Shown here one piece after another: positions 6,761 through 63,304 of a stretch of 64,000 bases of DNA (its first letter is position 1; each line of letters begins with the position of its first letter). The stretch lies in UHGV virus genome UHGV-1962423, one strand, 5' to 3'. The stretch is from a virus. The position numbers and the translations under genes are program-made. Below the pieces are notes generated by a model. The model made no database searches. It had not been told where the DNA came from and saw only the letters and a program-made list of their open reading frames with translations.

Positions 6761-6796
6761 CCCGTTACCCACAAAGGTAACGGGATGTCCTTTTAT
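6761..6796 (+). terminator. rho-independent terminator
   Basis: cccgttacc-cacaaa-ggtaacggg followed by T-rich tract. Confidence 0.65.
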
Positions 6797-6917
6797 TTAC
6801 TCGTAAACGCGTCTTAGACGCTGTTTTACACCTTAAGACGATTAATGGTGTTTAAAAAATAAAAGGTCGTCAGAATGCGATACAGCGCGTTTTAGAGGGT
6901 GTTTTAATTAAAATATT

Positions 6918-6958
6918 TTCAGATATATATTACTTAGGTGAGAGAATTACGTAATACT
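6918..6958 (+). promoter_or_regulatory. conserved promoter-like box TTCAGATATATATTACTTAGGTGAGA plus palindromic hairpin
   Basis: One of five near-identical AT-rich boxes in the window; hairpin core attacgtaat at 6946-6955; about 45 nt upstream of ATG 6991. Confidence 0.6.
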
Positions 6959-6990
6959 CATTTATCGTATACCTAATTAGGAGCTATATC

Positions 6991-7134
6991 ATGATTTCTG
7001 TAAAACACAAAAAAGCTATCTTCGCTGTTGTTATCGCTGTTGTTCTGGGTTGCCTGTACCTGGATATCGACAAAGGCTACGACACTTGCATCGACAACGG
7101 TAATTCCGTTGCGCAGTGCACTGGTCGTGGTTAA
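6991..7134 (+). CDS. small hydrophobic protein, possible lipoprotein (47 aa)
   Basis: Not in ORF track (short). TAGGAG RBS; MISVKHKKAIFAVVIAVVLGCLYLD... has a signal/TM segment with LGC lipobox-like motif; codons look highly expressed; strong terminator follows. Confidence 0.6.
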   Translation: MISVKHKKAIFAVVIAVVLGCLYLDIDKGYDTCIDNGNSVAQCTGRG

Positions 7135-7138
7135 TGTA

Positions 7139-7170
7139 TAAGGCACCTTCGGGTGCCCTTAATTTTTTTA
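7139..7170 (+). terminator. rho-independent terminator
   Basis: aggcacc-ttcg-ggtgcct followed by aattttttta. Confidence 0.7.
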
Positions 7171-7188
7171 TTAATTGGAGCATAAACG

Positions 7189-8004
7189 ATGATTACTATT
7201 AAAGATTATTTTCCGCGTGGGTTGAGCAATGAAAACTTCGTTCCAACTGAAGACATTGCCATCGTTGCAGAGTCCAGCGATAAGTCTTTTAAACTCTACT
7301 TGAGTACGGCAGCAGGAAAATCCACTCTTATCCTTCGTGAACCTGAAGTGATAAGCATCTGCTCGTTTGGGGGTGGTGTAGAAGGAACGATTAACTGGTT
7401 GAAATCCAGAATGCATCGTTTGCTTATCGTGAATACCGATCCTGTGATTCGTTTACAGCAATTGAAATCGTTGAATGAAATTATCGTCGGATTATTGGAA
7501 CATGAAACGTTTGGTAATGCTGAGATTGCGGAAGCGATTAAATCTGTAGAACTAATCGAGTGGAGCGATATCGAATACGAACGTGCTGGGTTATTCGCAA
7601 TGTACGGTGATGATAATCCCGTTGCGTTTGCACAAACGTTGGATAATGTTACCGTAACAGCGCGCGTATTGTTTGGTTTACAACGTGTTGAGTTTGAACT
7701 GAAACACGTCTACGTGAGCAATAAACCGGAGATGGTGGAGACATTGATTCGTGCTTTCGCATACCCGTTAGACGGTGAATGGGAACAGCAGATTAATGAA
7801 GCGTTAGAAGCCATGCATTTCCTGGCTGAAACGTTAAGGAAGGATGAGAAATTGAAAGGTCGTGTTTATCCAGAACACGATTTTGTTTGTGAAGAATGTG
7901 GAGCACAGTATCAAATCCGTGTTCCTTTAACCGGCCTAACATTCCCGCAAGCCAACGTGCAATGTAAGGAATGTGGTCATGTTCAATACGTAGCGATTAA
8001 ATAA
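7189..8004 (+). CDS. hypothetical protein with C-terminal zinc ribbon (271 aa)
   Basis: GGAG RBS; C-terminal CEECG...(21 aa)...CKECG pair of CxxC motifs. Confidence 0.75.
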   Translation: MITIKDYFPRGLSNENFVPTEDIAIVAESSDKSFKLYLSTAAGKSTLILREPEVISICSFGGGVEGTINWLKSRMHRLLIVNTDPVIRLQQLKSLNEIIVGLLEHETFGNAEIAEAIKSVELIEWSDIEYERAGLFAMYGDDNPVAFAQTLDNVTVTARVLFGLQRVEFELKHVYVSNKPEMVETLIRAFAYPLDGEWEQQINEALEAMHFLAETLRKDEKLKGRVYPEHDFVCEECGAQYQIRVPLTGLTFPQANVQCKECGHVQYVAIK

Positions 8005-26284: not shown

Positions 26285-26325
26285 CAACCTCTACCTTCGG
26301 GTAGAGGTTTTCTTCTTTTTATTTT
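26285..26325 (+). terminator. rho-independent terminator
   Basis: cctctacc-ttcg-ggtagagg followed by ttttcttctttttatttt. Confidence 0.75.
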
Positions 26326-26369
26326 ACAATTTTTGATCATACTGTGAGACTTCTAGCGAGGAGATTTAG

Positions 26370-27056
26370 ATGAAGGAATTGCAATTAAGAAAGCGTACTA
26401 CTCTTATCCCCCTTAAGGAACTAAAACAGTGTCCCGTTTTCTACTCACCGAAAGATCACCTAGATTTATCTAAAGAGAAAAAGATTATTATTTCTGCCTT
26501 CCGAGAAGTAATCAATCTTCGTTATTTCGCGGCACCAATGGATTGTGCTATCGAACATGCTATGTTGGATGGAAGAACGTCGCTTACAGTTTACGATTTG
26601 TTAGAAGAAAAGAATATCGGTATTGAAACTGGTATACTGAGAGTAAACAAAAATGAGTTATTAGAAAGTCAAAAACAACTAATGACAGGTGTTCAATTAC
26701 TCTTAGAGCAATATGGCTTCTATTCGGAAAAACCAACTTCTGCGGTATCTACACAACCCATCATCTGTGACCATGGGTTTGAGGTAGAATGGAAAACAAT
26801 TCGAGGGCAAGATTTTATTTTAATACATTGGTTCGTTCCCTATCTTTGGAAAGAGCGTACCACAGTTTATGCTTTACTTGAATTCGCTGTCTACTGGAGC
26901 ATTTATAAAAAAGAACGTGCTACTGCAATGAAAACGGTAATGACCACACCGTTAAATCAACTTTTTACCTCTGGGTTAGAAACAGATTTTAACGAACTAT
27001 GTACAACTATTTTCAAGATGGAGTATGGCTATGCACCAGTTGGATATAACCGCTGA
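26370..27056 (+). CDS. hypothetical protein (228 aa)
   Basis: GAGGAG RBS before ATG 26370. Confidence 0.75.
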   Translation: MKELQLRKRTTLIPLKELKQCPVFYSPKDHLDLSKEKKIIISAFREVINLRYFAAPMDCAIEHAMLDGRTSLTVYDLLEEKNIGIETGILRVNKNELLESQKQLMTGVQLLLEQYGFYSEKPTSAVSTQPIICDHGFEVEWKTIRGQDFILIHWFVPYLWKERTTVYALLEFAVYWSIYKKERATAMKTVMTTPLNQLFTSGLETDFNELCTTIFKMEYGYAPVGYNR

Positions 27057-27507
27057 TAAAATCTCCGCTAAATTTCCACAATTACGTGAATACATCAACG
27101 ACTTAAATTCAATTCGGGAAACACCGGTTAGAATTACGTTAGCAGTTGAAGATGATATTACTCACGGTATTGCGATCTGGGAGCCGGGGAATCTTATTTA
27201 TCTGGTGGTGGCGGAAGGTTCTCGACGTTTCGGTGTTGGTTCGTTTTTATTGCAATATGTTCAATTGAATTCCGATCGTCAAATGGTGACGTGCCGTGTC
27301 CACCCTTCGAACATTGACGGCCTGTGTTTCTTTTCGAAAAAGGGCTACCAGATTGACCGTTGGTATATCGCCAGCGACTCTCGTCGGTATTTTCGTATGA
27401 CGAACGGTAACGTTGTTTCGTCATACGCCCCGCCGGAAGAAGGATATTTGGTGGATTTTATCGAAAACACGCCCATCTTTCTCTCTGTTGCGGATAAAAT
27501 TTATTAA
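27025..27507 (+). CDS. GNAT-family acetyltransferase-like protein (160 aa)
   Basis: VVAEGSRRFGVGSFLL resembles the GNAT acetyl-CoA binding motif; start overlaps upstream gene. Confidence 0.45.
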   Translation: MAMHQLDITADKISAKFPQLREYINDLNSIRETPVRITLAVEDDITHGIAIWEPGNLIYLVVAEGSRRFGVGSFLLQYVQLNSDRQMVTCRVHPSNIDGLCFFSKKGYQIDRWYIASDSRRYFRMTNGNVVSSYAPPEEGYLVDFIENTPIFLSVADKIY

Positions 27508-27523
27508 CCGTTGAGAGTCTAAA

Positions 27524-28000
27524 ATGATACGTGTCGAATATGAGACGCGGTGCTTAGAAGACAATCGAGCAAAAGCATTACGTTGTGTTGAAATCGTCCC
27601 CGCACACGAACTGGATATTCAAGCTGGTAAGGTTCGGGGCGTTCCGGTTAAGATCGTACAACACAGCCATTGTTCGCAATATAAAGAGAAAGCTGTCCCA
27701 GTAGTACGTTCCAGTAAACGAGAAGACTTTTCAGAACTCCGTAAGTGTTTTCAACGACACTACCGCCGGAGTAAATGGAAGGTGTTGGTATTAATGTTAG
27801 TCGACGATTTCATTAAAGACCTGGTTTGGGAAGAAGTGCTTAAAGAGCGTGGTTTTCAACCCAAACCGTTCTCGTATCACTGGGAACGTTTCAAAAAGAA
27901 ATACCACGAGTCATTGCGTTGGTCTCCGAACACACGGAATATGATGCCACGTTTGGAATCAATGCCTTGGCTTCGTGTTTATCTCGATGAGGTAAACTGA
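27524..28000 (+). CDS. hypothetical basic protein (158 aa)
   Basis: ORF with ATGA coupling to the next gene. Confidence 0.65.
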   Translation: MIRVEYETRCLEDNRAKALRCVEIVPAHELDIQAGKVRGVPVKIVQHSHCSQYKEKAVPVVRSSKREDFSELRKCFQRHYRRSKWKVLVLMLVDDFIKDLVWEEVLKERGFQPKPFSYHWERFKKKYHESLRWSPNTRNMMPRLESMPWLRVYLDEVN

Positions 28001-28389
28001 TGAAACGTTTTATTACCCCCTTTCTAATGTTACTTTCGTTTTCTGTATTAGCGGATTTTAAACCTTGTGATATCAGTCGTTACGAACCCGCTGTTCCTGG
28101 TGATAAACCAGTCGTGTTTAAAGCAGGTGACCAACCCGTAACTGCGGTTCAAAACGAAGAGTTTGCAGTGGTGAACTACGGCAAAACGGAGTTATGCCCT
28201 GCGGGTGGATTTTATCTGGTGAACATCAAACGTCGGACTTACCAGTTTGTTGATCCGGGTAGCTGCTCTGCAACGGTTAAGGTAACGTTAGAAACCGTAC
28301 CTTACACGAATAAAAACATTAATATACAACGTTTAACCTTTTATGCGGGTGATGAAATCACAGCACGTTATCCGTTATACGGGTATTAG
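28000..28389 (+). CDS. secreted protein with N-terminal signal peptide (129 aa)
   Basis: MKRFITPFLMLLSFSVLA followed by DFKPCD. Ends with TAG. Confidence 0.7.
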   Translation: MKRFITPFLMLLSFSVLADFKPCDISRYEPAVPGDKPVVFKAGDQPVTAVQNEEFAVVNYGKTELCPAGGFYLVNIKRRTYQFVDPGSCSATVKVTLETVPYTNKNINIQRLTFYAGDEITARYPLYGY

Positions 28390-28412
28390 TGATTACCCCC
28401 CACGGAGTTCGT

Positions 28413-29051
28413 ATGTCTTTTGTAATTGATTTCGACGTTGGCCACAGACAGAACTTACTTAATCTCGTTAGTTATTGTAACAGCGACAGTGTACGGAAAA
28501 AGCTTTCGGCTGAAAAGGTGGATGTTACGCTCGTCGGTGCCCCAACACCGGAAGGGCGTTATAAGGTAAAGTTAACGAATCGTAATGATATTAACGATGC
28601 GGTAATGATTACCTACACAAAACTTCAACTGAACGACTTCCTTGAGATTCCTGCCAAGTATCTTGATTGGTTTGATTTCGAAAACGGACAACCTAAGAAC
28701 TACGATACGTGGGCAGCTTCCGCTAAAGTCGCCGTAGAGAAAATGTGCCAAGACCGAGGTATGGTGTTATCGCGAGCATGGGATACCGGTTCGCAATGCC
28801 ATATCGACTACGATGAATCAATCGAACGGTACGTGGTCATTTACGAGTGCGACTCTTTTATTTATAGTGCGAGAAACCGATTCATCTTACCTCTACACTT
28901 AGGGCAGGTGATTAAAGACACGACATTAGACGGTCTTGATTACAATAACGAACTGAACAAGAAACCTTTGGCGGATTTGGACGGCGAGTTAGAAGTGTGG
29001 ATGGGTCAGGCGCTGGTTGAGACAGTAGTCTTAAGCGGCCTGGAAGTGTAA
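28413..29051 (+). CDS. hypothetical protein (212 aa)
   Basis: Track start GTG 28389; ATG 28413 has GGAG 6 nt upstream. Confidence 0.7.
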   Translation: MSFVIDFDVGHRQNLLNLVSYCNSDSVRKKLSAEKVDVTLVGAPTPEGRYKVKLTNRNDINDAVMITYTKLQLNDFLEIPAKYLDWFDFENGQPKNYDTWAASAKVAVEKMCQDRGMVLSRAWDTGSQCHIDYDESIERYVVIYECDSFIYSARNRFILPLHLGQVIKDTTLDGLDYNNELNKKPLADLDGELEVWMGQALVETVVLSGLEV

Positions 29052-29063
29052 TAGTAACGGTGG

Positions 29064-29110
29064 GTAGAGAGAGCTTTCGGGCTCTCTCTACTTTTCTTTT
29101 TTTCATTATC
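29064..29110 (+). terminator. rho-independent terminator
   Basis: gtagagagagc-tttcg-ggctctctctac followed by ttttctttttttc. Confidence 0.8.
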
Positions 29111-29132
29111 GACGGTCTTTATGGAGGTGACT

Positions 29133-29687
29133 ATGAAAGAATATAGAATTGCGATCATCGGGTCTCGAGAAACGCCAGAAGACGTTATGCAGGAAATGTT
29201 AGAAACGTTACGGGAAGGGTTTCGAATCTTACGAAAGAAAGGCTATACGATTACCACCCGTTCTGGCGGGTGTTATAAAGGACCAGACCAACTTCAGTTT
29301 ATGTTAGCACGCACAGAGGACGTTAAGAGCGTTTGTTACCTGCCGGATGAAAAGAAAATGTGGTTAGGGAAAATACACCCTAAGGTAGAGTTCCGTTATA
29401 TCGCACAAGACGTTCAGTACCGCGCAATCGTTGCTTCACTTCACCCAAACCCAGATAAGCTCTCGCCGATTGCCTGGGCGTTACACGGGCGTAATCTGAA
29501 TATCATCGCAGGGGATTGTTTAGACGAGCCGGTAGACACAGTATATTACTTTAGCGACCACGACAAACACGGGAACGCAAAAGGTGGCACCGCAATGGGT
29601 GTGAAATACGCGAAGTCAATCGACGTTCCTTGTTATTATCATACCACCGATCGGGATAAGTGGTTGGAAAGCCTTCGTTTATTATGA
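29133..29687 (+). CDS. DprA/SLOG-like Rossmann-fold protein (184 aa)
   Basis: IAIIGSRETPEDV...TTRSGGCYKGPDQ resembles the GSR...SGG..G.D pattern of DprA/LOG-like folds. ATG 29133 has GGAGG 5 nt upstream. Confidence 0.35.
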   Translation: MKEYRIAIIGSRETPEDVMQEMLETLREGFRILRKKGYTITTRSGGCYKGPDQLQFMLARTEDVKSVCYLPDEKKMWLGKIHPKVEFRYIAQDVQYRAIVASLHPNPDKLSPIAWALHGRNLNIIAGDCLDEPVDTVYYFSDHDKHGNAKGGTAMGVKYAKSIDVPCYYHTTDRDKWLESLRLL

Positions 29688-29858
29688 ACTTGACTTTAAC
29701 CGCTTTACAAAGGAAACCTCGATAAGCGTCGTAGTTGAGTTCAGCGATTCACCGTGCGATGGGGTATATCCCCAATCTGATGGGAACAGAAGTTACTGCG
29801 TATCCGTTAGCAGGGTGAACTGGGTAAAAGTAAGATCAAAGCAAACGAGTAAATTATC

Positions 29859-30992
29859 ATGTCAACGTTAGATAGCGACTTAGAAGTGCTTTGTGACGAT
29901 TACGACCGACTCGTAGCGTTAGAATCCATTGGAGTAAAAGACAATTATCCGGCTATCGTTGCTATCCGTAAACGTTGGCTTTTGGATGATGTGGTTGTTG
30001 CGTCAGAGTCTGCGGCCATGATGCACCGTGCGCAGTTTTTGTCAGATACGGAACCTGATAAAGGGATTGGCAAAGCGGCGGCGCGACTCACCGGACGTGC
30101 GGTTCGTGGCGTAAGTCGGGTTGCAGGGCGTGCTGCTAGTGCAGGCGCAAAAGCATCAGCGAGTTTCGCAGGTAAACATTCCAAACAACTTGCTTTACGT
30201 TTTGTGGACTTTGCTGAAGCTGCGGGTAAAGAAGTCATTAAGGAATTAAAAGAAGCGACGTCTAAAGCAACGACCTTAGAACGCAAACTGCAAAGGTTAA
30301 ATGCACGTCTAAGTTTAATCGATGACAAAGACACCTTAAAACCGGTTGACTGCGACACGGGAAGCTGGACGACTAAAGTTTGTTTAGAAGACAAACCTAA
30401 CGTAAAAGCGTGTATTGAGTTCAGTAAGAACCTGAGCGCATTGGATGCGATGGTCAACGAGTACACCGTTAAAACGCGCACCATTATCGGTAAGAGCAAG
30501 AAAGTTACCGAGAGTGGTTTGGAGAAAGTAGGCCGGTCAACGAACTGGGCGATTAAACGTAGCGCAGGGTTGTTCGGTATTATTGATCCGTTTAAAACGG
30601 TGAAAGCGTATCCGTGGCCAGGTAACGTGGTGGTCGTTGAACACAACGGCGGTAAGATTGAGTGGGCGATTGCTCGTGATGGCGATTTTGGCCACACAAT
30701 CAAATCGCTGAACTTACACGAAATCGGTTCGGCGCTCGAAGCCGTTGAAAACATTATCCGTGCTTTACGTCATCGTGGTACGAAGCGACGTAGCGTTGGT
30801 TATACCGGTATTTACGATGAAATTCAGCGAATGAAAAAAGAACTGAAATCGTTAGACGGTCGTGAGTTACGCGATGCTACCGTTCGGTATAAAAACGCAC
30901 TGCGTTTAGAAGATGCGTTTACTACCTCGTTAGTGCGTGTTGCGGAGGGCTTACTGGAATGGTGCAGGTTATCGCTGATTGAGGTTAAATAA
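29859..30992 (+). CDS. hypothetical protein (377 aa)
   Basis: Long ORF with Ala/Arg-rich segment; ATGA coupling to next gene. Confidence 0.75.
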   Translation: MSTLDSDLEVLCDDYDRLVALESIGVKDNYPAIVAIRKRWLLDDVVVASESAAMMHRAQFLSDTEPDKGIGKAAARLTGRAVRGVSRVAGRAASAGAKASASFAGKHSKQLALRFVDFAEAAGKEVIKELKEATSKATTLERKLQRLNARLSLIDDKDTLKPVDCDTGSWTTKVCLEDKPNVKACIEFSKNLSALDAMVNEYTVKTRTIIGKSKKVTESGLEKVGRSTNWAIKRSAGLFGIIDPFKTVKAYPWPGNVVVVEHNGGKIEWAIARDGDFGHTIKSLNLHEIGSALEAVENIIRALRHRGTKRRSVGYTGIYDEIQRMKKELKSLDGRELRDATVRYKNALRLEDAFTTSLVRVAEGLLEWCRLSLIEVK

Positions 30993-31459
30993 TGCGTATC
31001 ACTATTATTCTCAAACCCGACAGTAAATACGGAAGGTTATACGGCGACCAGGTACTCAAACTGCACAACATGTTGTTCGCAGAAGAGAAACTGCGTATTA
31101 GTCAGTTAACCGGTCGTGACACGTTCAACCCAATTGAACACCTAGAAGAGATTTGGCCTCAAGATTATCTCTGTGCGTGTGCGGTGGATGACAACGAACA
31201 GCTTCTGGGATTTATGACGTTCTCATTGGGTTCTTGCTCAAAAGACACGTTTGTTTACATCGGGAATTACTATGTGATTCCTGAAGCACGTTCTCAAGGG
31301 GTAGGGCGTGCGCTTATGGACAAAGTCCGTGAATACGGAAAGTCCAAAGGTTGTGGTTGGATGAGTCTGGATGTGTTAGACAACAACGTTAAAGCTATCT
31401 CCTTGTATGAGAAAATGGGATTCCGTACCGAATGCAGGGAAATGATAAAGGAAATCTAA
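30992..31459 (+). CDS. GNAT-family N-acetyltransferase (155 aa)
   Basis: VIPEARSQGVGRALMDKVREY...ISLYEKMGF matches the GNAT Q/RxxGxG core. Confidence 0.6.
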   Translation: MRITIILKPDSKYGRLYGDQVLKLHNMLFAEEKLRISQLTGRDTFNPIEHLEEIWPQDYLCACAVDDNEQLLGFMTFSLGSCSKDTFVYIGNYYVIPEARSQGVGRALMDKVREYGKSKGCGWMSLDVLDNNVKAISLYEKMGFRTECREMIKEI

Positions 31460-31460
31460 A

Positions 31461-32093
31461 ATGGCTGTAAGATTCGTACCGTTTCACGACGGGTCTAGAT
31501 ATACTTTTGGTGTAGAGCGTTACGCTGTGGGTTTTCGTCCTGGTTGGAGAGTGGTACGAATCGATAAAACGTGTTGGTGTTTACCGACCAGCATTTTTGA
31601 TTACTTTACACCTGAAGCTTTAACGCGGTTTGTTTCTCTGGGTTCACCCACGCAACGTGCTGCGTGGGAAAAGAAAATTCGTTGCCGTTATTTGGGTAAA
31701 ACACGAAACGCGACGGTACGTGGTGTTTATCACGTAGGGAGTCGTTGGTTACACGTTGAATCAACACATCCCCGTTGTGCAGTTACACCCTTTAACGGTG
31801 AATATCACGGTCAGGTGTATACCGGAATACATTTTGCGTTCCCGGATAACCCTGACCTTAATTATTTTCTGGCTACCCCGAAAGACGTTACATTAGCCAC
31901 GTTCTATAAATACCTTTTGTTCTATCCTGCGTACGTCGTTGCAGAATACGAACACAAAGCATTTCCTCTGCCTTACGGTAGAGACAGGAGATTAGCAGGA
32001 TGTTCTATCGAGAACTTCAGCAATACACCGACGCTCTCCGAAAAGCGACCATCGATGCTCACAACAACCTCAGAGATGTCGTTAGCGTTATAG
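31461..32093 (+). CDS. hypothetical protein (210 aa)
   Basis: ORF immediately after upstream stop; 3' end overlaps next gene by 94 nt. Confidence 0.65.
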   Translation: MAVRFVPFHDGSRYTFGVERYAVGFRPGWRVVRIDKTCWCLPTSIFDYFTPEALTRFVSLGSPTQRAAWEKKIRCRYLGKTRNATVRGVYHVGSRWLHVESTHPRCAVTPFNGEYHGQVYTGIHFAFPDNPDLNYFLATPKDVTLATFYKYLLFYPAYVVAEYEHKAFPLPYGRDRRLAGCSIENFSNTPTLSEKRPSMLTTTSEMSLAL

Positions 32094-32371
32094 AACAGTG
32101 TTCGGATGTATTGTATGCGGAAACGATTGAAACGCCAACCCACGACGGTGTGAAATCGCTCCAGCTACACGTTTGTAGTAAACACGGCAGTCTGTCGTTA
32201 AACTTCCGTGTAGGTTTAGATTATTACATGGTTCGCAAGAGCTATTTAAGTTGTGACGGTGACCTCTATCCGGTTGTCTGGAACAACGACTATTCTAAGT
32301 TTGTTTATCCACTTGAAGAACACCGACGCACGGTTTATGAATTTGTGAAAGCTGTTCTCGAGGGGTTCTAA
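32000..32371 (+). CDS. hypothetical protein (123 aa)
   Basis: ATG 32000 with AGGAG RBS. Confidence 0.65.
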   Translation: MFYRELQQYTDALRKATIDAHNNLRDVVSVIEQCSDVLYAETIETPTHDGVKSLQLHVCSKHGSLSLNFRVGLDYYMVRKSYLSCDGDLYPVVWNNDYSKFVYPLEEHRRTVYEFVKAVLEGF

Positions 32372-32384
32372 AGAGGGTATTGTG

Positions 32385-32990
32385 ATGTCAGAGATGATTC
32401 TCGACTCATTACTGCTGATTACGGTGGCGTATATCAACAAAACCGGTAAGCTACCAAAGCGTGGGGTGACGATTGAGCGGGAGGGATTTAAGCACCGCTA
32501 CCCGTTAACGAAAGTTCTCGATTTGGCAGCGCGGTTAGCGAAGATGCGTAGACCGACGTCAGACGCAGCACCGAAGTACGTATTAGTGGTACTTCAACGT
32601 GCGATTTCTGAAGTTCGTCGTGCGCGTCGTCGTGCCTCGTTTCGCTTTTATCCAAACTCTACGCAACAGGTTGTGGGGGTCTATAACGAAATGGTTGTTG
32701 ATTTACGTGCCGAACACTGTAACGTTACGGGACTTGCGTATAACCGCCTCAAACGCATTCTGGACAACTCAGACGCGTTTACCACACCGCAAGAAGGTCA
32801 AGCGGCTTTAGCGCTTCTACGTGGCGCTGAGCTCGTTATTGTGGACACCGCAGTACAGGCCGCAAGAATGCAGCACTATCTTGCTAAGCAAGGGTTAGTT
32901 TTACTGTGTGTAGCGTCTGCACAGGCTGCTAATCTTACCGGACCGGAAAAGTCAGAAGTGTGGAGTGGTCCGATTGTTGACCATCAATAA
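32385..32990 (+). CDS. hypothetical protein (201 aa)
   Basis: Track start GTG 32382; ATG 32385 with AAGAGGG upstream. Confidence 0.7.
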   Translation: MSEMILDSLLLITVAYINKTGKLPKRGVTIEREGFKHRYPLTKVLDLAARLAKMRRPTSDAAPKYVLVVLQRAISEVRRARRRASFRFYPNSTQQVVGVYNEMVVDLRAEHCNVTGLAYNRLKRILDNSDAFTTPQEGQAALALLRGAELVIVDTAVQAARMQHYLAKQGLVLLCVASAQAANLTGPEKSEVWSGPIVDHQ

Positions 32991-32996
32991 AACCTT

Positions 32997-33030
32997 ACCC
33001 CTACCTAACGGTAGGGGCGGGTTTCTTTTT
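32997..33030 (+). terminator. rho-independent terminator
   Basis: cccctacc-taac-ggtagggg followed by cgggtttctttttt. Confidence 0.75.
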
Positions 33031-33128
33031 TATCCTAAAATTTATTACAACCAATAGCTATTATGTGAACGCCGGTATGGAATAAAGAAGTATCGGTTTA
33101 AATTTTTGTGCGTAAAGGTAAAACAATA

Positions 33129-33752
33129 ATGCTTAAGACAGTGTCTATTGATGGCCCTGACTTTTCTGGGAAATCGACGTTGTGCAAAATAGTAAAAGGT
33201 ATGCTGGAATCTGCGGGGTTAAAGGTCTGCATCCGTAATCACCCTACGACGGAGACCGAAGCGGGTATCCGCGCGCGCAGTTTAGTCGTTCAGTCCGCAG
33301 CAAAAGCAAAAATTGCCGAAGCGATGTGCGACGATTTCCTCCACACGCTAGACCATGTTGTTGACGATTACGATGTTGTTATTTTCGACAGGTTCTGTCC
33401 CTCTACAGTCGTTTACCAGGGCGTCGACGGTAAAGACGAAGTTTTCCGACGTAAGCTAACGCGTCATTTCCACGCACCAGATTTGTACGTTTGGACAGAT
33501 GTGGATTACGACGGCGCAGTAGCACGCTTTAAGAAACGGGTAGAAGAACAAGGTAAGAATTGGGACGATGAGGTTCTTACCGTTAAGTATTTAAAAGACA
33601 ACCAAAGCTGGGAAGCGTTACGTGATCACTACCGTTTCGCCCACCACATTCTCACTGAAGGCGGTTGTCTGCACCATTTATTACTCGTGAAGCAAGACGA
33701 CGATTACCGTTTAAAAGCGGCTGAAATCGTTGCTTGTATTTTAGAGAATTAA
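33129..33752 (+). CDS. tmk: thymidylate kinase
   Basis: P-loop IDGPDFSGKSTL and DRFCPSTVVYQG (the DRY..S..AYQ motif of dTMP kinases). Track start GTG 33108; ATG 33129 chosen. Confidence 0.75.
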   Translation: MLKTVSIDGPDFSGKSTLCKIVKGMLESAGLKVCIRNHPTTETEAGIRARSLVVQSAAKAKIAEAMCDDFLHTLDHVVDDYDVVIFDRFCPSTVVYQGVDGKDEVFRRKLTRHFHAPDLYVWTDVDYDGAVARFKKRVEEQGKNWDDEVLTVKYLKDNQSWEALRDHYRFAHHILTEGGCLHHLLLVKQDDDYRLKAAEIVACILEN

Positions 33753-33758
33753 TCACAT

Positions 33759-33795
33759 ACCCCTACCTTCGGGTAGGGGGTTATTTAATTTTTTC
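33759..33795 (+). terminator. rho-independent terminator
   Basis: cccctacc-ttcg-ggtagggg followed by T-rich tract. Confidence 0.75.
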
Positions 33796-33835
33796 TCAGA
33801 TATATATTACCTTAGTGAGATTACACAGTAATCTC
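33795..33835 (+). promoter_or_regulatory. conserved promoter-like box CTCAGATATATATTACCTTAGTGAGA plus hairpin
   Basis: Same box as at 6918, 53683 and 58071; hairpin gagattac-acag-gtaatctc; about 50 nt upstream of ATG 33870. Confidence 0.6.
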
Positions 33836-33869
33836 TTACGACTTGTTCTACAGATTAGGATTAATTATC

Positions 33870-34229
33870 ATGGCTTACAATCACAACTCTATTGTTTTAG
33901 CAAAACGTAAATTCGGTCTTCATCTTTCTTACGTGATTCGTCATTTGACAGCGAAAGACATTACACAGCGTGAACTTGCCCAGCTTGCGAAAGTTTCACA
34001 ACCGGTTATTTCATCTATTAAGAACGAACGCAGCGAATGCCTGAGTCTCCCAATAATGATGAAGGTTGCTGATGCGATTCGTCTGAAATATCAGATTACG
34101 TTTAATTCTGTTAAAGGGAGTTGCTCAGTAACGGTTCACGTAGAGTCTGCGTTGGACTACGTTGCAAATACGTCCCTTAAACGTACAGCGAAGAATATTC
34201 GTTTTGTTACTAACGGCGCAACACACTAA
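33870..34229 (+). CDS. helix-turn-helix transcriptional regulator (119 aa)
   Basis: ITQRELAQLAKVSQPVISSIKN matches an XRE/Cro-type HTH; track start is TTG 33843, ATG 33870 preferred. Confidence 0.55.
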   Translation: MAYNHNSIVLAKRKFGLHLSYVIRHLTAKDITQRELAQLAKVSQPVISSIKNERSECLSLPIMMKVADAIRLKYQITFNSVKGSCSVTVHVESALDYVANTSLKRTAKNIRFVTNGATH

Positions 34230-34250
34230 CCAACCTAAAGGAGTATTATC

Positions 34251-34937
34251 ATGGCACCGAAAACTAAGAAAACTGAAGTTAAAGAAACTGAAGAAAAACC
34301 GGTTAACTTCTATAATGACGAACAGGTTAAGCAGACTGAGCCTAGCAAGAAGCTTGCGCTTATGCCGCCTACCACAGAAATACACGGGGATAAAATCTTA
34401 AGTTACACTCCGCGCATGAGTTTAGCGATCGATATTTACCATTACCCGGTATTCGACCTGTACACGCTTGTCTGTCGACTCGACGATGAGATACTGGCAG
34501 TCGTTCCAGGTATCCACAAAGAAAAACTGCTTACGGGTTCAGTCATTAGCGAGATTTTCCTGCGCCTGATGTTTAAATCAGACGATAAGAGAATCAGCCA
34601 GATTGCTGGTAAAATGACTGACTTCTTTGTTGAGGCTTCAACGTGGTTAGGCTTTCACCCAACGGCTTATTTCATTTTCGACACCAAAATGTTGTATGCT
34701 GAAATGGGCGACAGCGTTAAGTATCCTATCTTACTTAATGAAGAAGTCGTTCCGTTTTCCCTTTCCAGTCCTAACAAACATCTTCGCTTTCATCCGGCGT
34801 TAGAAAGCCTGATCGAACACCAACGGTTGGAAAAATATTACGCTTATCATCGCATGTTCTTTGAGCTTCTGCGTGATAAATTAAGAGGCAAAGTTCCAGA
34901 TTCTAGTGTATCGTTCACTAGTTCTAAGCTTTGGTAG
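34251..34937 (+). CDS. hypothetical protein with acidic/lysine-rich N-terminus (228 aa)
   Basis: AGGAG RBS; N-terminal KTKKTEVKETEEKP low complexity. Confidence 0.75.
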   Translation: MAPKTKKTEVKETEEKPVNFYNDEQVKQTEPSKKLALMPPTTEIHGDKILSYTPRMSLAIDIYHYPVFDLYTLVCRLDDEILAVVPGIHKEKLLTGSVISEIFLRLMFKSDDKRISQIAGKMTDFFVEASTWLGFHPTAYFIFDTKMLYAEMGDSVKYPILLNEEVVPFSLSSPNKHLRFHPALESLIEHQRLEKYYAYHRMFFELLRDKLRGKVPDSSVSFTSSKLW

Positions 34938-34949
34938 TTTGTAACAAAC

Positions 34950-34978
34950 AGGGAGCTTCGGCTCCCTTTTTCTTTTTA
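34950..34978 (+). terminator. rho-independent terminator
   Basis: gggagc-ttcg-gctccc followed by tttttcttttt. Confidence 0.75.
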
Positions 34979-35023
34979 CAACTTTTTCTTTTGTTGTGAG
35001 GAAAGCCGATAAGGAGTATTAAA

Positions 35024-36010
35024 ATGGTATATCGTAAAACGATAGAAAGAACCTCTTCTGATTTAACAGTAGGACGCTTAGCCCGTAGAGATATTCGCAA
35101 TCCTCAACTTCAGGCATGTTTAATGGGTCCTAACGGTGCGGTGATTCGTGAAGCACTGTGTAATACCGAGCTGAATACGTTCTCTTTACAAAAAGGAAAA
35201 ACAATCCAAGGGTTTATCATCACAAAACACATTTACGGTGATCCAACGTTACACTGCTTGTATATGCACGAAATTGTACCAGGCTGTTTGAACAAACTGA
35301 GTCTTCTATTGGTACTTGACTATACGGGTTTTACGTACCTTAACCGAATTGCCAGAGGCGTGGAAGAAATTGCTGAGCTTAACGATTTAGGGTTTAGACA
35401 TACCCACACAGCATATCGTTTAGGTACACGTACGCTATCGGATGTCACTTTACCGACGAACGTGAAGAACGTCTCCGGCGACTTCTATAAAGACTTAACC
35501 GGAGCACAACGTGAGCAGCTCATGACATTGTTTGGCACTAGTGTCGTTGAAAATATCAATGCTGACCCTGTAACGCGTTCTCGACAAATAATGCCGCAAG
35601 TTGAAACATTGGTGGAGTTAGTGCGGCACGTCAATCACTACACTTACGTTTGGATGGGCGGTAATGACGTTGTGGGTGTGGTGCAAGTTAAATCACGTAA
35701 TCTTAGTGAGTGCGAACTAAAAGCCATTGCGGTAAGTGAATCACACCGGGGCCGTGGGATTGGGCGTGCGTTGCTGTATCGTGCTTTACAGATTGCATCG
35801 ACAACAGCGGCACCATTAGAAATAGGGTGTTACAATAACAATTCAGCATTTAGACACCTGGCTGTAGATTTGTTTAAATTCCGTCCCTACGAGTACGAAT
35901 TTGTTTTAGTGCGCGACGACGATGTCGTCAGTTGGGAGCGTCGGAAAAACCGCGTCGCGTTAGTGTTAGGCGACGAAATGTCAACGTTACAAGGCGGAAT
36001 TAATGCATAA
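35024..36010 (+). CDS. protein with C-terminal GNAT acetyltransferase domain (328 aa)
   Basis: AIAVSESHRGRGIGRALLYRALQIA matches the GNAT RGxGxG motif; AAGGAG RBS. Confidence 0.6.
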   Translation: MVYRKTIERTSSDLTVGRLARRDIRNPQLQACLMGPNGAVIREALCNTELNTFSLQKGKTIQGFIITKHIYGDPTLHCLYMHEIVPGCLNKLSLLLVLDYTGFTYLNRIARGVEEIAELNDLGFRHTHTAYRLGTRTLSDVTLPTNVKNVSGDFYKDLTGAQREQLMTLFGTSVVENINADPVTRSRQIMPQVETLVELVRHVNHYTYVWMGGNDVVGVVQVKSRNLSECELKAIAVSESHRGRGIGRALLYRALQIASTTAAPLEIGCYNNNSAFRHLAVDLFKFRPYEYEFVLVRDDDVVSWERRKNRVALVLGDEMSTLQGGINA

Positions 36011-36818
36011 ACCAATTATAAAGTGGATGGGTGGCAAATCGCGGATCATCGACACCTTACTACAAGTCTTACCTGAACGTACAACATTCGTTGAACCGTT
36101 TGTTGGTGCAGGGTCGGTGTTTTTGAACACACGTTATAAACGTTACATTCTTGCTGACTCTAACCCTGACTTAATACAGTTGCTGAACGTGGCGAAAGAC
36201 CAACCTGAAGAACTTATCTTAAAGTCGAAACCGCTATTCGAAGACGGTAACGATTGTATTAAGTATATGGAGAGACGAGAACTGTTTAATCGCGAAACGG
36301 ATATGGCCCCGTTAGACCGTGCTGCAATGTTTCTGTACTTAATGCGTCATGGTTTTAACGGGATGTGTCGTTACAACGGCGGCGGAGGTTTTAACGTTCC
36401 GTTTGGTCGCTATCCTAACGGTGTGTATTACCCGTTAGAAGAGATTCGTGGTTGGGCTAAACGTTGTCAAGAACCGGAATACTTAGAAATTGTTTGTGAA
36501 GATTTCCGAACAGTTTTAGAGCGTACACCGGAAGACAGCGTGATTTACGCAGACCCACCTTATATACCGCTCTCAGAGACCGCTAAACACGCCCAATACC
36601 ATCGGAAGGAGTTTTCCCAGGCTGACCATCGGGAACTCGCCAGAGCGCTGTTTAAGCAGGTTGAGAAGGGGAATAGCGTTGTGTTGTCCAATGCAGATAC
36701 GTTACTAACGCGTGAGATTTATTACGGGTTCGAATGGCGTTCTGTGGAAGTAGGGCGGTATATGGGTGCATCGGGCGCTGCTCGTAAAACGGTAACGGAA
36801 TTGTTAGGAGTGCTCTAA
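36003..36818 (+). CDS. dam: DNA N6-adenine methyltransferase, Dam family
   Basis: KWMGGKSRII, FVEPFVGAGSVF (AdoMet motif I) and YADPPYIP (catalytic DPPY). Confidence 0.85.
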   Translation: MHKPIIKWMGGKSRIIDTLLQVLPERTTFVEPFVGAGSVFLNTRYKRYILADSNPDLIQLLNVAKDQPEELILKSKPLFEDGNDCIKYMERRELFNRETDMAPLDRAAMFLYLMRHGFNGMCRYNGGGGFNVPFGRYPNGVYYPLEEIRGWAKRCQEPEYLEIVCEDFRTVLERTPEDSVIYADPPYIPLSETAKHAQYHRKEFSQADHRELARALFKQVEKGNSVVLSNADTLLTREIYYGFEWRSVEVGRYMGASGAARKTVTELLGVL

Positions 36819-37591
36819 TGCGTATAGTGGATATCCACGATTATCGTAATGACCATTTAGCGATTGGTGTAGAAGGTAAAATGGTTTCGTTAACCCGTGT
36901 ACGTAAAGGGTTAATGGAAAAGGAAATCATTCGGGAATCTGAAGACCCTACTTTTATCATCCTTTCGAATACTAACCAGTTACAGGGCATCTTTTCAGGG
37001 CGTGCAGACGGTAAGATTTTCTATATGTCCGCGATCGTTGTGTTTGCGAAGAAGAACATCAACTTCGCCCAACTCAAACGTTTGTTAAACGTGAAGATGT
37101 TCGATGTCACGTACCCTGCTAACGACCTAAAACGTCGTAATCAATTAATGACGTTTTTAGGTATGCAACCAACGTCTATCGATTATGACCTTACGATTAC
37201 TGAAAAGCCGGAAGTGCGCACTGACTTACCTGACGTAGACGATGTTGAATCCTTAACGTTAGAAGAGACGTTTACGATTCCTAAGGTTGTTAATGTCAAC
37301 CTGGACACGCACTGTTTAGGGTTGTTAGCCGTAGGTGCAGCAGAAGGGTTGTGTTGTCGTAAAGACGGTAAGGTTGAAGGTATCTTAGTCTATTCGAAAA
37401 TCAACGAAAAGACATTTGCCACCGAAGGCTTTTTCTATAACGATTGCACTTACGGAAACGCTCTACTAACCACGTATTTCCGTATTGCTTATCTGAAAGG
37501 CGCAACTGTACGCCTCACGTTTCCATACACAGCTCCACCGTCTATGGGTGGAGTTGAGGTAGAAGCATTAACCGGTCACTTTATCTTTTAA
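36818..37591 (+). CDS. hypothetical protein (257 aa)
   Basis: ATGA-type overlap with dam stop. Confidence 0.7.
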   Translation: MRIVDIHDYRNDHLAIGVEGKMVSLTRVRKGLMEKEIIRESEDPTFIILSNTNQLQGIFSGRADGKIFYMSAIVVFAKKNINFAQLKRLLNVKMFDVTYPANDLKRRNQLMTFLGMQPTSIDYDLTITEKPEVRTDLPDVDDVESLTLEETFTIPKVVNVNLDTHCLGLLAVGAAEGLCCRKDGKVEGILVYSKINEKTFATEGFFYNDCTYGNALLTTYFRIAYLKGATVRLTFPYTAPPSMGGVEVEALTGHFIF

Positions 37592-38374: not shown

Positions 38375-38377
38375 GCT

Positions 38378-38416
38378 GCACCCTCTCTCCAGACGGAGAG
38401 AGGGTGTATTTTTTTA
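38378..38416 (+). terminator. rho-independent terminator
   Basis: caccctctctcc-agac-ggagagagggtg followed by tattttttt. Confidence 0.8.
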
Positions 38417-38889: not shown

Positions 38890-39159
38890 ATGGCTAAGAT
38901 TTACATTGTTGAAAAACGTTCAGGTAATGTTCTTTCTTATCACGAAGAAGGCAAACCCGAAAGAGTTAAAACGCTCAAGCTTGAAGGTTTTGATGTGAAA
39001 AGCCTGCGTAAAGGCGTGAAGATTACTTTCAAAGGTTTGATTCGTGCAAGTAACTTACACATCATTAAAACGGACGGAACGATGGTTGCATTAGCACCGG
39101 CTACCGCTGCGAAAACGACAGCCGGTCGGGGTTGCTACGGCAGCAGTCGTAAGATTTAA
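38890..39159 (+). CDS. hypothetical small protein (89 aa)
   Basis: GGAG RBS; terminator downstream. Confidence 0.65.
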   Translation: MAKIYIVEKRSGNVLSYHEEGKPERVKTLKLEGFDVKSLRKGVKITFKGLIRASNLHIIKTDGTMVALAPATAAKTTAGRGCYGSSRKI

Positions 39160-49755: not shown

Positions 49756-49799
49756 AAGAGTAGCGTAGGGGTGACCTCCCCCCTACGCGAATCTTAACA

Positions 49800-49809
49800 G
49801 GGGGGGGGG
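49800..49809. repeat. G10 homopolymer tract immediately upstream of start codon 49812
   Basis: Ten consecutive G directly read in sequence, 2 nt before the ATG; preceded by hairpin gcgtagggg...cccctacgc at 49763-49788. Confidence 0.9.
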
Positions 49810-49811
49810 TA

Positions 49812-50315: not shown

Positions 50316-50352
50316 TTATTTTTCAAACGAATGTGTTTGAAAACGTAATCGA

Positions 50353-50362
50353 GGGGGGGGGG
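50353..50362. repeat. second G10 homopolymer tract in intergenic region
   Basis: Ten consecutive G, 55 nt upstream of GTG 50418. Confidence 0.9.
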
Positions 50363-50417
50363 TGAAGTGTTTTTAGCCAACATTTTATGTCTCCCCAACC
50401 GTAGGAGGTAAATATAC

Positions 50418-53683: not shown

Positions 53684-53728
53684 TCAGATATATATTACCT
53701 AGAGGAGAGTGAAATTTACATTCACTCC
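53683..53728 (+). promoter_or_regulatory. conserved promoter-like box CTCAGATATATATTACCTAGAGGAGAG plus hairpin
   Basis: Box plus hairpin gagtgaa-atttaca-ttcactc; about 30 nt upstream of ATG 53757. Confidence 0.6.
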
Positions 53729-58070: not shown

Positions 58071-58112
58071 TTCAGATATATATTACCTAGGTGAGAGTTC
58101 AGTTACTCTCAC
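58071..58112 (+). promoter_or_regulatory. conserved promoter-like box TTCAGATATATATTACCTAGGTGAGAG plus hairpin
   Basis: Hairpin gtgagagt-tcagtt-actctcac; about 30 nt upstream of ATG 58143. Confidence 0.6.
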
Positions 58113-61774: not shown

Positions 61775-62623
61775 ATGTCTCTTACGTCAAAACAGAAACT
61801 GCTAAAACTCATCAACACTGAAAACAATATTAGTCCACCGTTGACTTTCAGTGATGTTGATATCGGAGAACCTACTGGTACTGGGGTTGATACCCAGGTG
61901 GTTCTGACCTCTAAACTCAAAGGCGATGAGTCTACTACTTTAACAGTGACTTACCACCGTCGTAATTTACCTGACTACTTAACCGGTGAGTTGGTTTTCG
62001 GTAACGACAGTGTGGTAACCGCATCAGATTTGCTTAATGCGATCAACGCAAAATACAACCTAAATATTTTACCCTCGGATATCGTTGACGCAAAAGTTGA
62101 AGGTGAAACCCATCAGCTTACCGCTAACGAGAAATCTTACGAGTGGTGCGGTGTAGTAACACTTACGCTGCGTGATCCTATTGACCTGACTGAACTGTTA
62201 CCAGTTACTCAATTAGAGAATCTGGTAGAGTATCCGTCCACTAAGAAAGGTAACGCTGCGGTTTATTCTCACCCGATCGATTTCACCGCAGAAAAAGATT
62301 ACCTTGACCCGATTACTATCAACGACACCGTAGACTTGGTCGAGTTAGCCGCTAAACTGGATGGCGTCGTTGACGAGAAATGGGTAAGTGTGCCTAAGAA
62401 CGCGACTAACAACCTGTACGGTGCGAAGGTTATTTACGATGGCCCAACCGCAGGTTACGAAGGCGCAAATACGAAGTTCACTCGTGTGTTGGTGCTGACG
62501 CTCAGCCCGCTGTGTTCTAACCTGACAGGTAATCTGTTAATCCACTTTAACGGTACCGATCGTCCGAAGTCGAAGATTGAATTAGCACAGACTAATCCGG
62601 TCTTACCGGGATTCTTAGATTAA
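61775..62623 (+). CDS. hypothetical protein (282 aa)
   Basis: Long ORF; paralogous to the following truncated gene. Confidence 0.75.
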   Translation: MSLTSKQKLLKLINTENNISPPLTFSDVDIGEPTGTGVDTQVVLTSKLKGDESTTLTVTYHRRNLPDYLTGELVFGNDSVVTASDLLNAINAKYNLNILPSDIVDAKVEGETHQLTANEKSYEWCGVVTLTLRDPIDLTELLPVTQLENLVEYPSTKKGNAAVYSHPIDFTAEKDYLDPITINDTVDLVELAAKLDGVVDEKWVSVPKNATNNLYGAKVIYDGPTAGYEGANTKFTRVLVLTLSPLCSNLTGNLLIHFNGTDRPKSKIELAQTNPVLPGFLD

Positions 62624-62636
62624 GAGGATTACAGTA

Positions 62637-63161
62637 ATGACCAATCAAGAAACTATCTTCGACCTTATTAAAAAGGCTAACCCAGACGCTGAGTTCGACA
62701 CCACCAAAGTCACACTGGGTGACCCGGTCGTAACCACCGGTACGTACAATACCGAAATCACAGTTGCGTCAATTAAGAATCTCGGTTATACTAACGAACA
62801 AACGTTCCAGTATAACCGGATCGACGCAGGTTTGTATTTCCTGAACGTATTACCGAAACTGTTGGTGGAATCGGCAACAACGACCGCTGACTTACTGCCT
62901 GTCATTAACGAGCAGTACAGCCTAACCCTTACAGAAGACGATGTATGGGTAGAGCAGGTTGGTGAGTTACCGTTAGACGGAAGCGCAATCGAACACGGTA
63001 TTTTCTTCCGTCCTGAGTGTCTGACCTGGGTTGGCGGTTTTACAGTGCGAGTTGCGCGTAAACCGGCTGGCGCTACGCCACCCGAGACATGGAGGAGCCC
63101 CAGACCGCCGAATCCTGGCGCACCATGCCCCAGAAGGCGGCCGAGTGGTGGAAAAAGGTAA
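62637..63161 (+). CDS. paralog of 61775 gene, disrupted at the composition junction near 63070
   Basis: First ~145 codons are phage-like and align to the upstream paralog; the remaining frame runs into high-GC DNA with implausible Pro/Arg-rich translation. Confidence 0.5.
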   Translation: MTNQETIFDLIKKANPDAEFDTTKVTLGDPVVTTGTYNTEITVASIKNLGYTNEQTFQYNRIDAGLYFLNVLPKLLVESATTTADLLPVINEQYSLTLTEDDVWVEQVGELPLDGSAIEHGIFFRPECLTWVGGFTVRVARKPAGATPPETWRSPRPPNPGAPCPRRRPSGGKR

Positions 63162-63229
63162 ACGCAGGTGAAATTGAGAACCCGTTTATTTTCGAGCACA
63201 GCAACGAGCCGGAGGACTACGAGTTTTAA
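63089..63229 (+). CDS. small hypothetical ORF in high-GC segment (46 aa)
   Basis: Not in track. ATG 63089 to TAA 63227-63229; followed by a 10-bp-stem hairpin (63241-63273). Weak evidence. Confidence 0.25.
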   Translation: MEEPQTAESWRTMPQKAAEWWKKVNAGEIENPFIFEHSNEPEDYEF

Positions 63230-63304
63230 TTCCAAAGCGCGGAAGAAGGGGCGGCCGGTACGTCCCTTCTTCCTGTGCATTGCTTATAAAGGAGTGTCAC
63301 AGCT

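Follow-up and report, generated by a model that had tools for sequence, protein, structure and literature searches.

Three GNAT-type acetyltransferase genes of an enterobacterial jumbo phage lineage are divergent members of a known jumbo-phage gene set

UHGV virus genome UHGV-1962423 was analysed over a stretch of 64,000 nucleotides (nt), hereafter the window, which carries three genes for GNAT-type acetyltransferases within 9 kb. All three lie on the plus strand and are referred to here as GNAT1 (27031..27507), GNAT2 (30992..31459) and GNAT3 (35024..36010). These genes are real and were correctly recognised in an earlier sequence-only reading of the window, yet they are ordinary, being divergent members of a set known from jumbo phages. 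It is likely that they represent a conserved gene set of the SPN3US/Erskinevirus/Machinavirus/Wellingtonvirus group, that they were inherited separately, and that they encode acetyl-CoA-dependent N-acetyltransferases, of which GNAT2 likely acetylates spermidine. The strings that the sequence-only reading had quoted for the genes at 27025, 30992 and 35024 are R/Q-x-x-G-x-G/A acetyl-CoA loops. They are not coincidental, since all three proteins have the GNAT fold. In profile comparisons with GNAT families, GNAT2 and GNAT3 score above the Pfam threshold; GNAT1 scores below it but is assigned by PHROG 7861, by its fold and by the Protein Data Bank (PDB) entry 7DQG. GenBank, RefSeq and PGAP already label these genes as acetyltransferases, the exception being GNAT1 in NZ_CP173450.1, which PGAP calls 'hypothetical'.

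The window belongs to an enterobacterial jumbo phage lineage that is absent from the searched phage collection and present in bacterial assemblies. A megablast search of the region against GenBank phages returned no close phage, a 66-nt match alone. By blastn and tblastn, the window is collinear with the Salmonella phage SPN3US (Seoulvirus) and the E. coli phage Lh1B, and also with Erskinevirus (Erwinia phages phiEaH2 and Asesino), Machinavirus (Caitlin, Huxley and Machina) and Wellington/Kwan, all of which are phiKZ-related jumbo phages. SPN3US and phiEaH2 are distant kin of the window, with 45-68% amino acid identity. Salmonella assembly contigs of ~220 kb and a 225-kb metagenome scaffold encode proteins that are 89-97% identical, in the same order as in the window. 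A circular 'plasmid' of 221,873 bp from the urinary/clinical E. coli strain 98232 (NZ_CP173450.1) has 95.9% nucleotide identity over the region, and Salmonella enterica assemblies contain contigs of ~100 kb and ~220 kb that carry this type of jumbo phage. The deposition of a jumbo phage as an E. coli plasmid and as Salmonella contigs suggests that the phage persists in a carrier or pseudolysogenic state, or that it was sequenced along with its host.

The three genes hold identical syntenic slots in SPN3US, Lh1B, Caitlin, the metagenome scaffold and the E. coli-borne copy NZ_CP173450.1, and because these slots are shared, the clustering of the three is not a matter of chance. Some 50-60 deposited genomes carry all three at these positions. 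SPN3US encodes gp88 (acetyltransferase), gp95 (a GNAT right after the internal head protein gp94) and gp104 (right before the Dam methylase gp105), with order and neighbours as in the window. When phage records were searched by tblastn, GNAT1 was found in 62 of them (up to 68% identity, Cronobacter CR5 and Derbicus-type Erwinia phages included), GNAT2 in 61 (best identity 50%) and GNAT3 in 48 (best identity 29%). Genes kept in this way across several genera do not fit the term accessory, which had been applied to the region. Cross-searches among GNAT1, GNAT2 and GNAT3 give weak matches near noise, and profile-profile comparison with hhalign finds the three alike over the cofactor-binding core only. 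These comparisons place them as three old independent lineages with no recent duplicates. Hence, the presence of three GNATs in 9 kb is read as an old, vertically inherited feature of the clade, and not as the recent expansion that the phrase 'multiple acetyltransferases' had implied. Family hidden Markov models of GNAT1 and GNAT3, together with phmmer searches with GNAT2, found no further GNAT beyond the three among all six-frame open reading frames (ORFs) of the window. A hhalign run aimed at cryptic GNATs covered the hypothetical ORFs at 24-39 kb; the 27031 and 35024 family profiles in this run were contaminated by GNAT2-type sequences, and their cross-scores were ignored. The families of the ORFs at 26370, 28389, 31461, 32382 and 34251 had probabilities below 20% against GNAT profiles, and ORF 36818-37591, described below, was alone in giving a match.

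GNAT2 is a canonical single-domain GNAT of 155 amino acids (aa) by Pfam, synteny and orthology. It scores 69.9 bits against Pfam Acetyltransf_1 (E=2.8e-19, cutoff 20.7), has 41 GNAT sequence matches in the PDB and carries the motif RSQGVG at aa 100-105 (nt 31289-31306). The residues R100-x-x-G103-x-G105 and Y139 are invariant across its family, and the window protein keeps Tyr139 at the catalytic position. With a profile match above threshold, an acetyl-CoA loop and a tyrosine in α4, GNAT2 is a member of the GNAT superfamily. Evidence on the acceptor comes from related phages. In the study of Li et al. (PNAS 2023, PMC9992855), candidate spermidine N-acetyltransferases from phages were produced in E. 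coli dspeG, and N-acetylspermidine was detected for phiEaH2 YP_007237670 and Caitlin YP_009292176. These two genes, and that of SPN3US YP_009153389, come right after the internal head protein gene in their genomes, and because each is directly downstream of it, the three assayed proteins are syntenic orthologs of GNAT2. The identity of GNAT2 is 49% to the phiEaH2 protein, 45% to that of Caitlin and 47% to that of SPN3US, with a tblastn coverage of 100% for phiEaH2 and Caitlin. The two positive proteins resemble GNAT2 in their syntenic slot, in their length (154-155 aa) and in the invariant R-x-x-G-x-G and Tyr139. With respect to all the assayed members, the window protein is an outgroup, and its activity is a prediction.

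By analogy with these orthologs, we lean towards GNAT2 acetylating spermidine, with a confidence that is only a little better than even. GNAT2 would transfer an acetyl group from acetyl-CoA to spermidine, and the level of free polyamine in an infected enterobacterium would fall as a result, as with the phiEaH2 and Caitlin orthologs. Several points weigh against this assignment. The SPN3US ortholog gave no N-acetylspermidine in the same assay (PMC9992855). GNAT2 does not reach the cutoff of the NCBIfam model SpmdActasePaiA (25.5 bits, cutoff 250) or that of rimI (TIGR01575; 50.6 bits, cutoff 86.4), and the SpeG model is not among its best 25 NCBIfam matches. Its best PDB sequence match is SSAT2 (2BEI, E=7.4e-10), over 68 residues only, and the Glu/Asp pair of SSAT, as read from this alignment, is Gly/Asn in GNAT2. 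By score, GNAT2 thus lies outside the SpeG, PaiA and SSAT equivalogs; it is likened to them in function and belongs to a separate phage family. With regard to the SPN3US result, the phiEaH2 and SPN3US orthologs share 72% identity and those of phiEaH2 and Caitlin 56%. The negative protein falls inside the range of divergence between the two positives, which makes spermidine acetylation the likely ancestral function; on this economical reading, the SPN3US negative would reflect a lineage-specific loss or an expression artefact. There are 12 columns where both positives agree but SPN3US differs. GNAT2 matches the positives at three of them (D10, D110 and D130), where SPN3US has N, E and G. The sequence-only reading had suggested chemistry that modifies the host, and this part is borne out for GNAT2 by the phiEaH2 and Caitlin orthologs (PMC9992855), while its toxin and known anti-defence readings found no support. 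In some Seoulviruses (Lh1B 6770-7264; also EC001, JN03 and phage 1252), an extra gene for a GNAT of 164 aa, 30-34% identical to GNAT2, separates the internal head protein gene from that of the GNAT2 ortholog.

GNAT1 is a single-domain minimal GNAT of 158 aa if read from 27031, or of 160 aa from the ATG at 27025. A GGAG at 27020-27023 is 7 nt from ATG 27031 and 1 nt from ATG 27025. The true start is probably ATG 27031, because of the 7-nt spacing and because the orthologs and PGAP begin there. The acetyl-CoA loop RRFGVG occupies aa 67-72 of the 27025 ORF (nt 27223-27240), and R67-R68-x-G70-V71-G/A72 is nearly invariant across the family. GNAT1 matches PHROG 7861 'acetyltransferase' at E=1.6e-69, and several of its orthologs carry precomputed PF13508/PF00583 matches. 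Its AlphaFold2 (AF2) model (predicted local distance difference test, pLDDT, 70) has the canonical GNAT topology b1-a1-b2-b3-b4-a3-b5-a4-b6-b7. Foldseek returned 265 PDB matches to this model at E<=1e-3, and the best 50 of the 265 are all GNAT-type acetyltransferases. The top match is 7DQG (E=4.6e-20, 57% identity), followed by archaeal Ard1, PA4794, RimI, Naa50 and SpeG. By phmmer, GNAT1 matches 7DQG ('Crystal structure of Salmonella phage acetyltransferase') at E=5.5e-60 with 57-59% identity, and over the alignment 7DQG and SPN3US gp88 have the same sequence. GNAT1 is a GNAT-fold protein and the ortholog of gp88 (SPN3US_0088, YP_009153382), with which it shares its position after a gp87-type ORF, the acetyl-CoA loop and a conserved C-terminal tail, although it is nearer to the Erskinevirus orthologs (68% identity). 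A literature search for 7DQG found no publication or substrate, and the SPN3US virion papers and one searchable supplement make no mention of gp88, gp95 or gp104. The C-terminal tail of GNAT1 (aa 129-160, nt 27409-27507; PPEE..L..F....PIFLS.A) is nearly invariant and is modelled with low confidence. The root-mean-square deviation of the model on 7DQG is 18.8 Å despite a TM-score of 0.76. This hints at a C-terminal segment that is mobile or that binds a partner.

GNAT3 is a tandem-GNAT protein of 328 aa, as judged from Pfam, its AF2 model and its fold matches. Its motif RGRGIG (aa 242-247, nt 35747-35764) is a perfect R-x-x-G-x-G, and it scores 42.6 bits against Pfam Acetyltransf_1 over aa 199-275 (E=8.3e-11, cutoff 20.7). 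A Mom-type DNA acyltransferase was considered given the coupling to Dam described below; in Pfam and NCBIfam, GNAT3 matches generic GNAT models only. The AF2 model (pLDDT 82) predicts two α/β GNAT-like domains, not one. The N-terminal domain (aa 14-133, nt 35063-35422) has no acetyl-CoA motif, and the C-terminal domain (aa 147-296, nt 35462-35911) carries RGRGIG. The top PDB fold matches, aligned over 305-340 columns, are all tandem GNATs and include the clavulanate protein CBG (2WPW/2WPX), Legionella VipF, MAB_4324, MshD, GlmA and Eis. MshD (1OZP), VipF (7WX5/6WQB), CBG (2WPW), GlmA (5KF1) and Eis are like GNAT3 in having two domains with the cofactor motif in the C-terminal one. These cellular proteins differ from GNAT3 in sequence (8-16% identity) and match it with TM-scores of 0.43-0.51, and no substrate can be transferred from them. 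The N-terminal domain would probably form part of the acceptor site, with the C-terminal domain alone keeping the acetyl-CoA loop. Among phages, the 'GCN5-related N-acetyltransferase' of the SPN3US gp104 type is like GNAT3 in its two domains, in its C-terminal cofactor motif and in its position upstream of Dam, and the named phage orthologs are 21-30% identical to it. The GNAT3 family has 11 cluster representatives at E<=1e-3 among 1.84 billion, almost all of 315-335 aa, and GNAT3 is a clade-restricted tandem GNAT. In phiEaH2 there is no GNAT3 gene between gp027 and the Dam gene gp028, and Dam and the downstream paralogs are kept. The phages whose GNAT1 and GNAT2 are nearest to those of the window hence do not share its GNAT3 content.

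Outside phages, the structures nearest to GNAT1 are those of Ard1/Naa- and RimI-type enzymes, and because of this GNAT1 would be expected to acetylate an amine on a protein or peptide; its structural neighbours lean to protein N-terminal or lysine acetyltransferases. Because the neighbours of GNAT1 and GNAT3 taken together span both small-molecule and protein acetyltransferases, they point to this acceptor only weakly. One further possibility, which we regard as doubtful though deserving of attention, is host takeover, in which at least one of the GNATs, GNAT1 or GNAT3 being the most plausible, would acetylate host proteins (RNA polymerase subunits or ribosomal proteins, for instance) and so redirect transcription or translation. 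Iyer et al. (2021, PMC7824862) predicted such a role for jumbo-phage GNATs and noted that ribosomal-protein GNATs are the nearest kin of some of them. The Ard1/Naa N-terminal acetyltransferases, PA4794 and RimI around GNAT1 agree with it, as does VipF, a Legionella effector with tandem GNAT domains that ranks high among the fold matches of GNAT3. Among the NCBIfam models, rimI comes first for GNAT2 and GNAT3 and second for GNAT1, just behind a generic N-acetyltransferase model, but all of these scores are far below cutoff (for rimI, 50.6 bits with GNAT2, 25.5 with GNAT3 and 16.0 with GNAT1, cutoff 86.4). The GNAT2 orthologs, moreover, already have a demonstrated small-molecule substrate. According to the literature, these phages encode their own RNA polymerases, and the need to hijack that of the host is therefore less obvious. 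Rac of phiKMV-like Pseudomonas phages, which acetylates the RNA polymerase alpha subunit, is a phage single-domain GNAT that has been proposed as a model for jumbo-phage GNATs (PMC7824862, PMC13282480). Rac differs from the window GNATs in host, phage family and transcription strategy, and the two are set side by side by description only.

The assignment of all three proteins as acetyltransferases must also be weighed against several features of GNAT1 and GNAT3. GNAT1 falls short of Pfam Acetyltransf_7 (20 bits, cutoff 27). Its family has an invariant Phe102-Phe103 where GNAT2 has Leu138-Tyr139, which puts Phe103 at the position of the canonical catalytic tyrosine. GNAT3 has Ala280 at this position, with a conserved His/Tyr at 278. 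Without the canonical tyrosine, GNAT1 and GNAT3 could each be either a slow enzyme or a non-catalytic binder. Additionally, the GNAT3 loop is degenerate in Huxley (TGKRIG) and Wellington (QNKRHG), and the adjoining ORF at 36818 appears to be a fully degenerate copy. One or both proteins would then be pseudoenzymes that serve as GNAT-fold scaffolds or binders and have no transferase activity, like the GNAT-like domain of chimallin. Chimallin, in the phage nuclear shell, shows that the GNAT fold of a jumbo-phage protein can be non-catalytic (PMC9365700). We consider this unlikely for GNAT1 and GNAT3, as the R-R-x-G-V-G/A loop is nearly invariant in the GNAT1 family and the window GNAT3 has a perfect R-x-x-G-x-G. 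An invariant acidic patch, E42-D43-D44, is found in the GNAT1 family, and a catalytic role is conceivable for this patch and for H278 of GNAT3. The canonical tyrosine is also missing from many active GNATs. Acetyl-CoA-dependent transfer remains the reading that we prefer for all three proteins.

The Dam DNA adenine methylase (36003..36818, plus strand) is of the D12 class (Pfam E=3.8e-57), and its first 8 nt are shared with the end of GNAT3. Dam lies immediately 3' of GNAT3 in all the GNAT3-bearing genomes inspected, namely SPN3US, Lh1B, Huxley, Wellington, the 225-kb metagenome scaffold and NZ_CP173450.1. From this gene arrangement, GNAT3 is predicted to be translationally coupled to Dam. The Dam stop is overlapped by 1 nt by the start of an ORF of 257 aa (36818..37591, plus strand), which belongs to PHROG 9941 and has no Pfam family. 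In two hhalign runs the family of this ORF aligns collinearly with that of GNAT3, at 76% probability (E=2.2e-5, 210 columns) and, when an independently built family is used, at 88% (E=2.8e-6, 226 columns). No acetyl-CoA loop is present in the 36818-37591 family. In BFVD, the GNAT3 model matches uncharacterised proteins of 256-276 aa from Kwan and phiEaH2 (E ~1e-9 to 1e-8), whose sizes agree with those of the genes that follow Dam in Wellington and phiEaH2, an agreement in length alone. The ORF is probably a degenerate tandem-GNAT-like paralog of GNAT3, and its overlap with Dam suggests that it is translated along with GNAT3 and Dam. SPN3US has two such degenerate GNAT3-like genes (gp106 and gp107), and the window has one.

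It could be imagined that GNAT3, Dam and the degenerate GNAT3-like protein (35024-37591) form one module that adds an acyl-type modification to DNA, to a nucleotide pool or to a defence protein, together with adenine methylation, but we give this very little credence. If true, the GNAT3-Dam module would amount to a new system of anti-restriction or epigenetic control, confined to this clade of jumbo phages. The coupling to Dam, a classical anti-restriction function, bears also on a proposal of anti-defence, in which the GNATs would inactivate a host immune protein, as AcrVA5 does with Cas12a, or would deplete a defence cofactor. Spermidine acetylation can be placed here too, for the authors of the spermidine study speculate on an anti-CRISPR/anti-restriction benefit, with spermidine depletion possibly impairing CRISPR adaptation and restriction fidelity (PMC9992855). 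We consider anti-defence quite unlikely nevertheless. There is no AcrVA5-like protein among the PDB matches listed, and none of the three GNATs has a PADLOC match at E<=0.1, where PADLOC models defence and not anti-defence proteins. The GNAT genes lie at fixed positions across genera and not in variable islands, and phiEaH2-type phages keep Dam without GNAT3.

GNAT1, GNAT2 and GNAT3 each lie in an operon of their own, as delimited by predicted terminators, all on the plus strand as are the genes. Within the window, 28 terminators were found against 15.9 +/- 4.5 expected. A hairpin with a T-run (26286..26309) precedes the GNAT1 operon, the first gene of which (26370..27056, PHROG 8034) overlaps the start of GNAT1. 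This overlap or abutment is kept in SPN3US (gp87/gp88) and in NZ_CP173450.1. A second hairpin with a T-run (29062..29093) parts the GNAT1 operon from that of GNAT2, which comprises a DprA-like/SLOG-type gene (29121-29687; PHROG 768, 5.8e-43), the phiKZ-type internal head protein (29859..30992; Pfam phiKZ_IP 29.4 bits, PHROG 2497 at 1.4e-73) and GNAT2, and which ends at a hairpin terminator (32998..33017). The TAA stop of the internal head protein overlaps the ATG of GNAT2 (TAATG), and the adjacency of the two genes is kept in SPN3US, phiEaH2, Caitlin, the 225-kb metagenome scaffold and NZ_CP173450.1. The overlap indicates that GNAT2 is probably translated together with the internal head protein. 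Thymidylate kinase (33108-33752, Pfam 2.3e-17) is followed by a strong hairpin at 33760. A GGGAGC-TTCG-GCTCCC hairpin with a T-run (34950..34967) lies immediately 5' of GNAT3, and the leader between them contains TTTTACAA, TGTGAG and an AAGGAG Shine-Dalgarno sequence. The unit of GNAT3, Dam and the ORFs of 257, 75 and 168 aa ends at a strong hairpin terminator (38377..38408). The neighbours that the sequence-only reading had named, a DprA/SLOG-like gene, thymidylate kinase and Dam methylase, are confirmed by PHROG 768, Pfam and Pfam D12, respectively.

This organisation bears on whether the GNATs could be toxins of the TacT/AtaT/ItaT type, which acetylate aminoacyl-tRNA and shut off translation. 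GNAT1 and GNAT2 are of similar size (155-160 aa), and the overlap of GNAT1 with the upstream ORF superficially resembles a two-gene cassette. The upstream ORFs, however, are of 228-377 aa; they have no Pfam family (26370-27056 and 34251-34937) or encode the head protein (29859-30992), and no DUF1778/RHH antitoxin is found there. No tRNA-acetylating toxin is among the listed matches (PDB sequence matches of GNAT1 and GNAT2, and the best 50 of 265 fold matches of GNAT1), a TacT/AtaT-type match is likewise absent from the PDB matches listed, and there is no PADLOC match. A translation block would also halt the phage's own protein synthesis. We hold toxin-like activity, which the sequence-only reading had raised, to be extremely unlikely. 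A toxin-antitoxin module was rejected as a candidate because an antitoxin-like neighbour is lacking and the sequence and fold matches listed show no toxin similarity.

The timing of expression can likewise be approached through the gene order and promoter-like motifs. The one sharply conserved AT-rich promoter-like motif of the window, AGATATATATTACC, resembles the early promoters described for jumbo phages (PMC7598289); it has three exact copies (33798, 53686 and 58074) and one copy with one mismatch, all intergenic and on the plus strand. The AT-rich motif TCAGATATATATTACCT lies at 33798-33811, 53686-53699 and 58074-58087 (exact) and at 6921-6934 (one mismatch), again intergenic and on the plus strand, and (A/T)G(A/G/T)GAGA lies a few nt 3' of it. 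This motif is a candidate early promoter for the virion RNA polymerase. The AGATATATATTACC motif heads other units and directly precedes no GNAT gene, and the block that holds the GNATs is flanked by virion structural genes and includes an internal head protein gene coupled to GNAT2. The description of this block as an early region accordingly finds no support in the sequence. A looser element, TTTTACRA, shows no enrichment in the window (13 found, 12.8 expected). With 10 copies against 27 +/- 5 expected, TGTGAG is an underrepresented hexamer in the window, yet plus-strand copies at 26343, 34995 and 38852 stand in the leaders of the operons of GNAT1 and GNAT3 and of the gene at 38890, and it may serve as an element of promoters or leaders.

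Other features of the window were also observed. The ORF at 28000-28389 (129 aa) has a hydrophobic, signal-peptide-like N-terminus (MKRFITPFLMLLSFSVLA), and its slot is kept in SPN3US, phiEaH2 and Caitlin. Poly-G runs (G10-G11) occur in the intergenic stretches 49756-49811 and 50316-50417, which is unusual for a genome of ~44% GC. The GC content is 0.54 at 62001-64000 and 0.38-0.48 in the remaining window. Scans of the window for tRNAs and Rfam families returned nothing.

For the annotation of this phage group, the value of the analysis is that GNAT2 can be named a probable spermidine N-acetyltransferase, GNAT1 a phage acetyltransferase of the 7DQG type and GNAT3 a tandem GNAT. The phiEaH2 and SPN3US orthologs of GNAT2 are closely similar yet differ in the assay, and GNAT2, at 45-49% identity to the assayed proteins, could help to map the residues that decide activity. 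That a giant phage would acetylate host spermidine although it needs polyamines to package its DNA and for translation is a real puzzle, and one already published. The remaining interest lies in the acceptors of GNAT1 and of the unit formed by GNAT3, Dam and the degenerate paralog across the clade.

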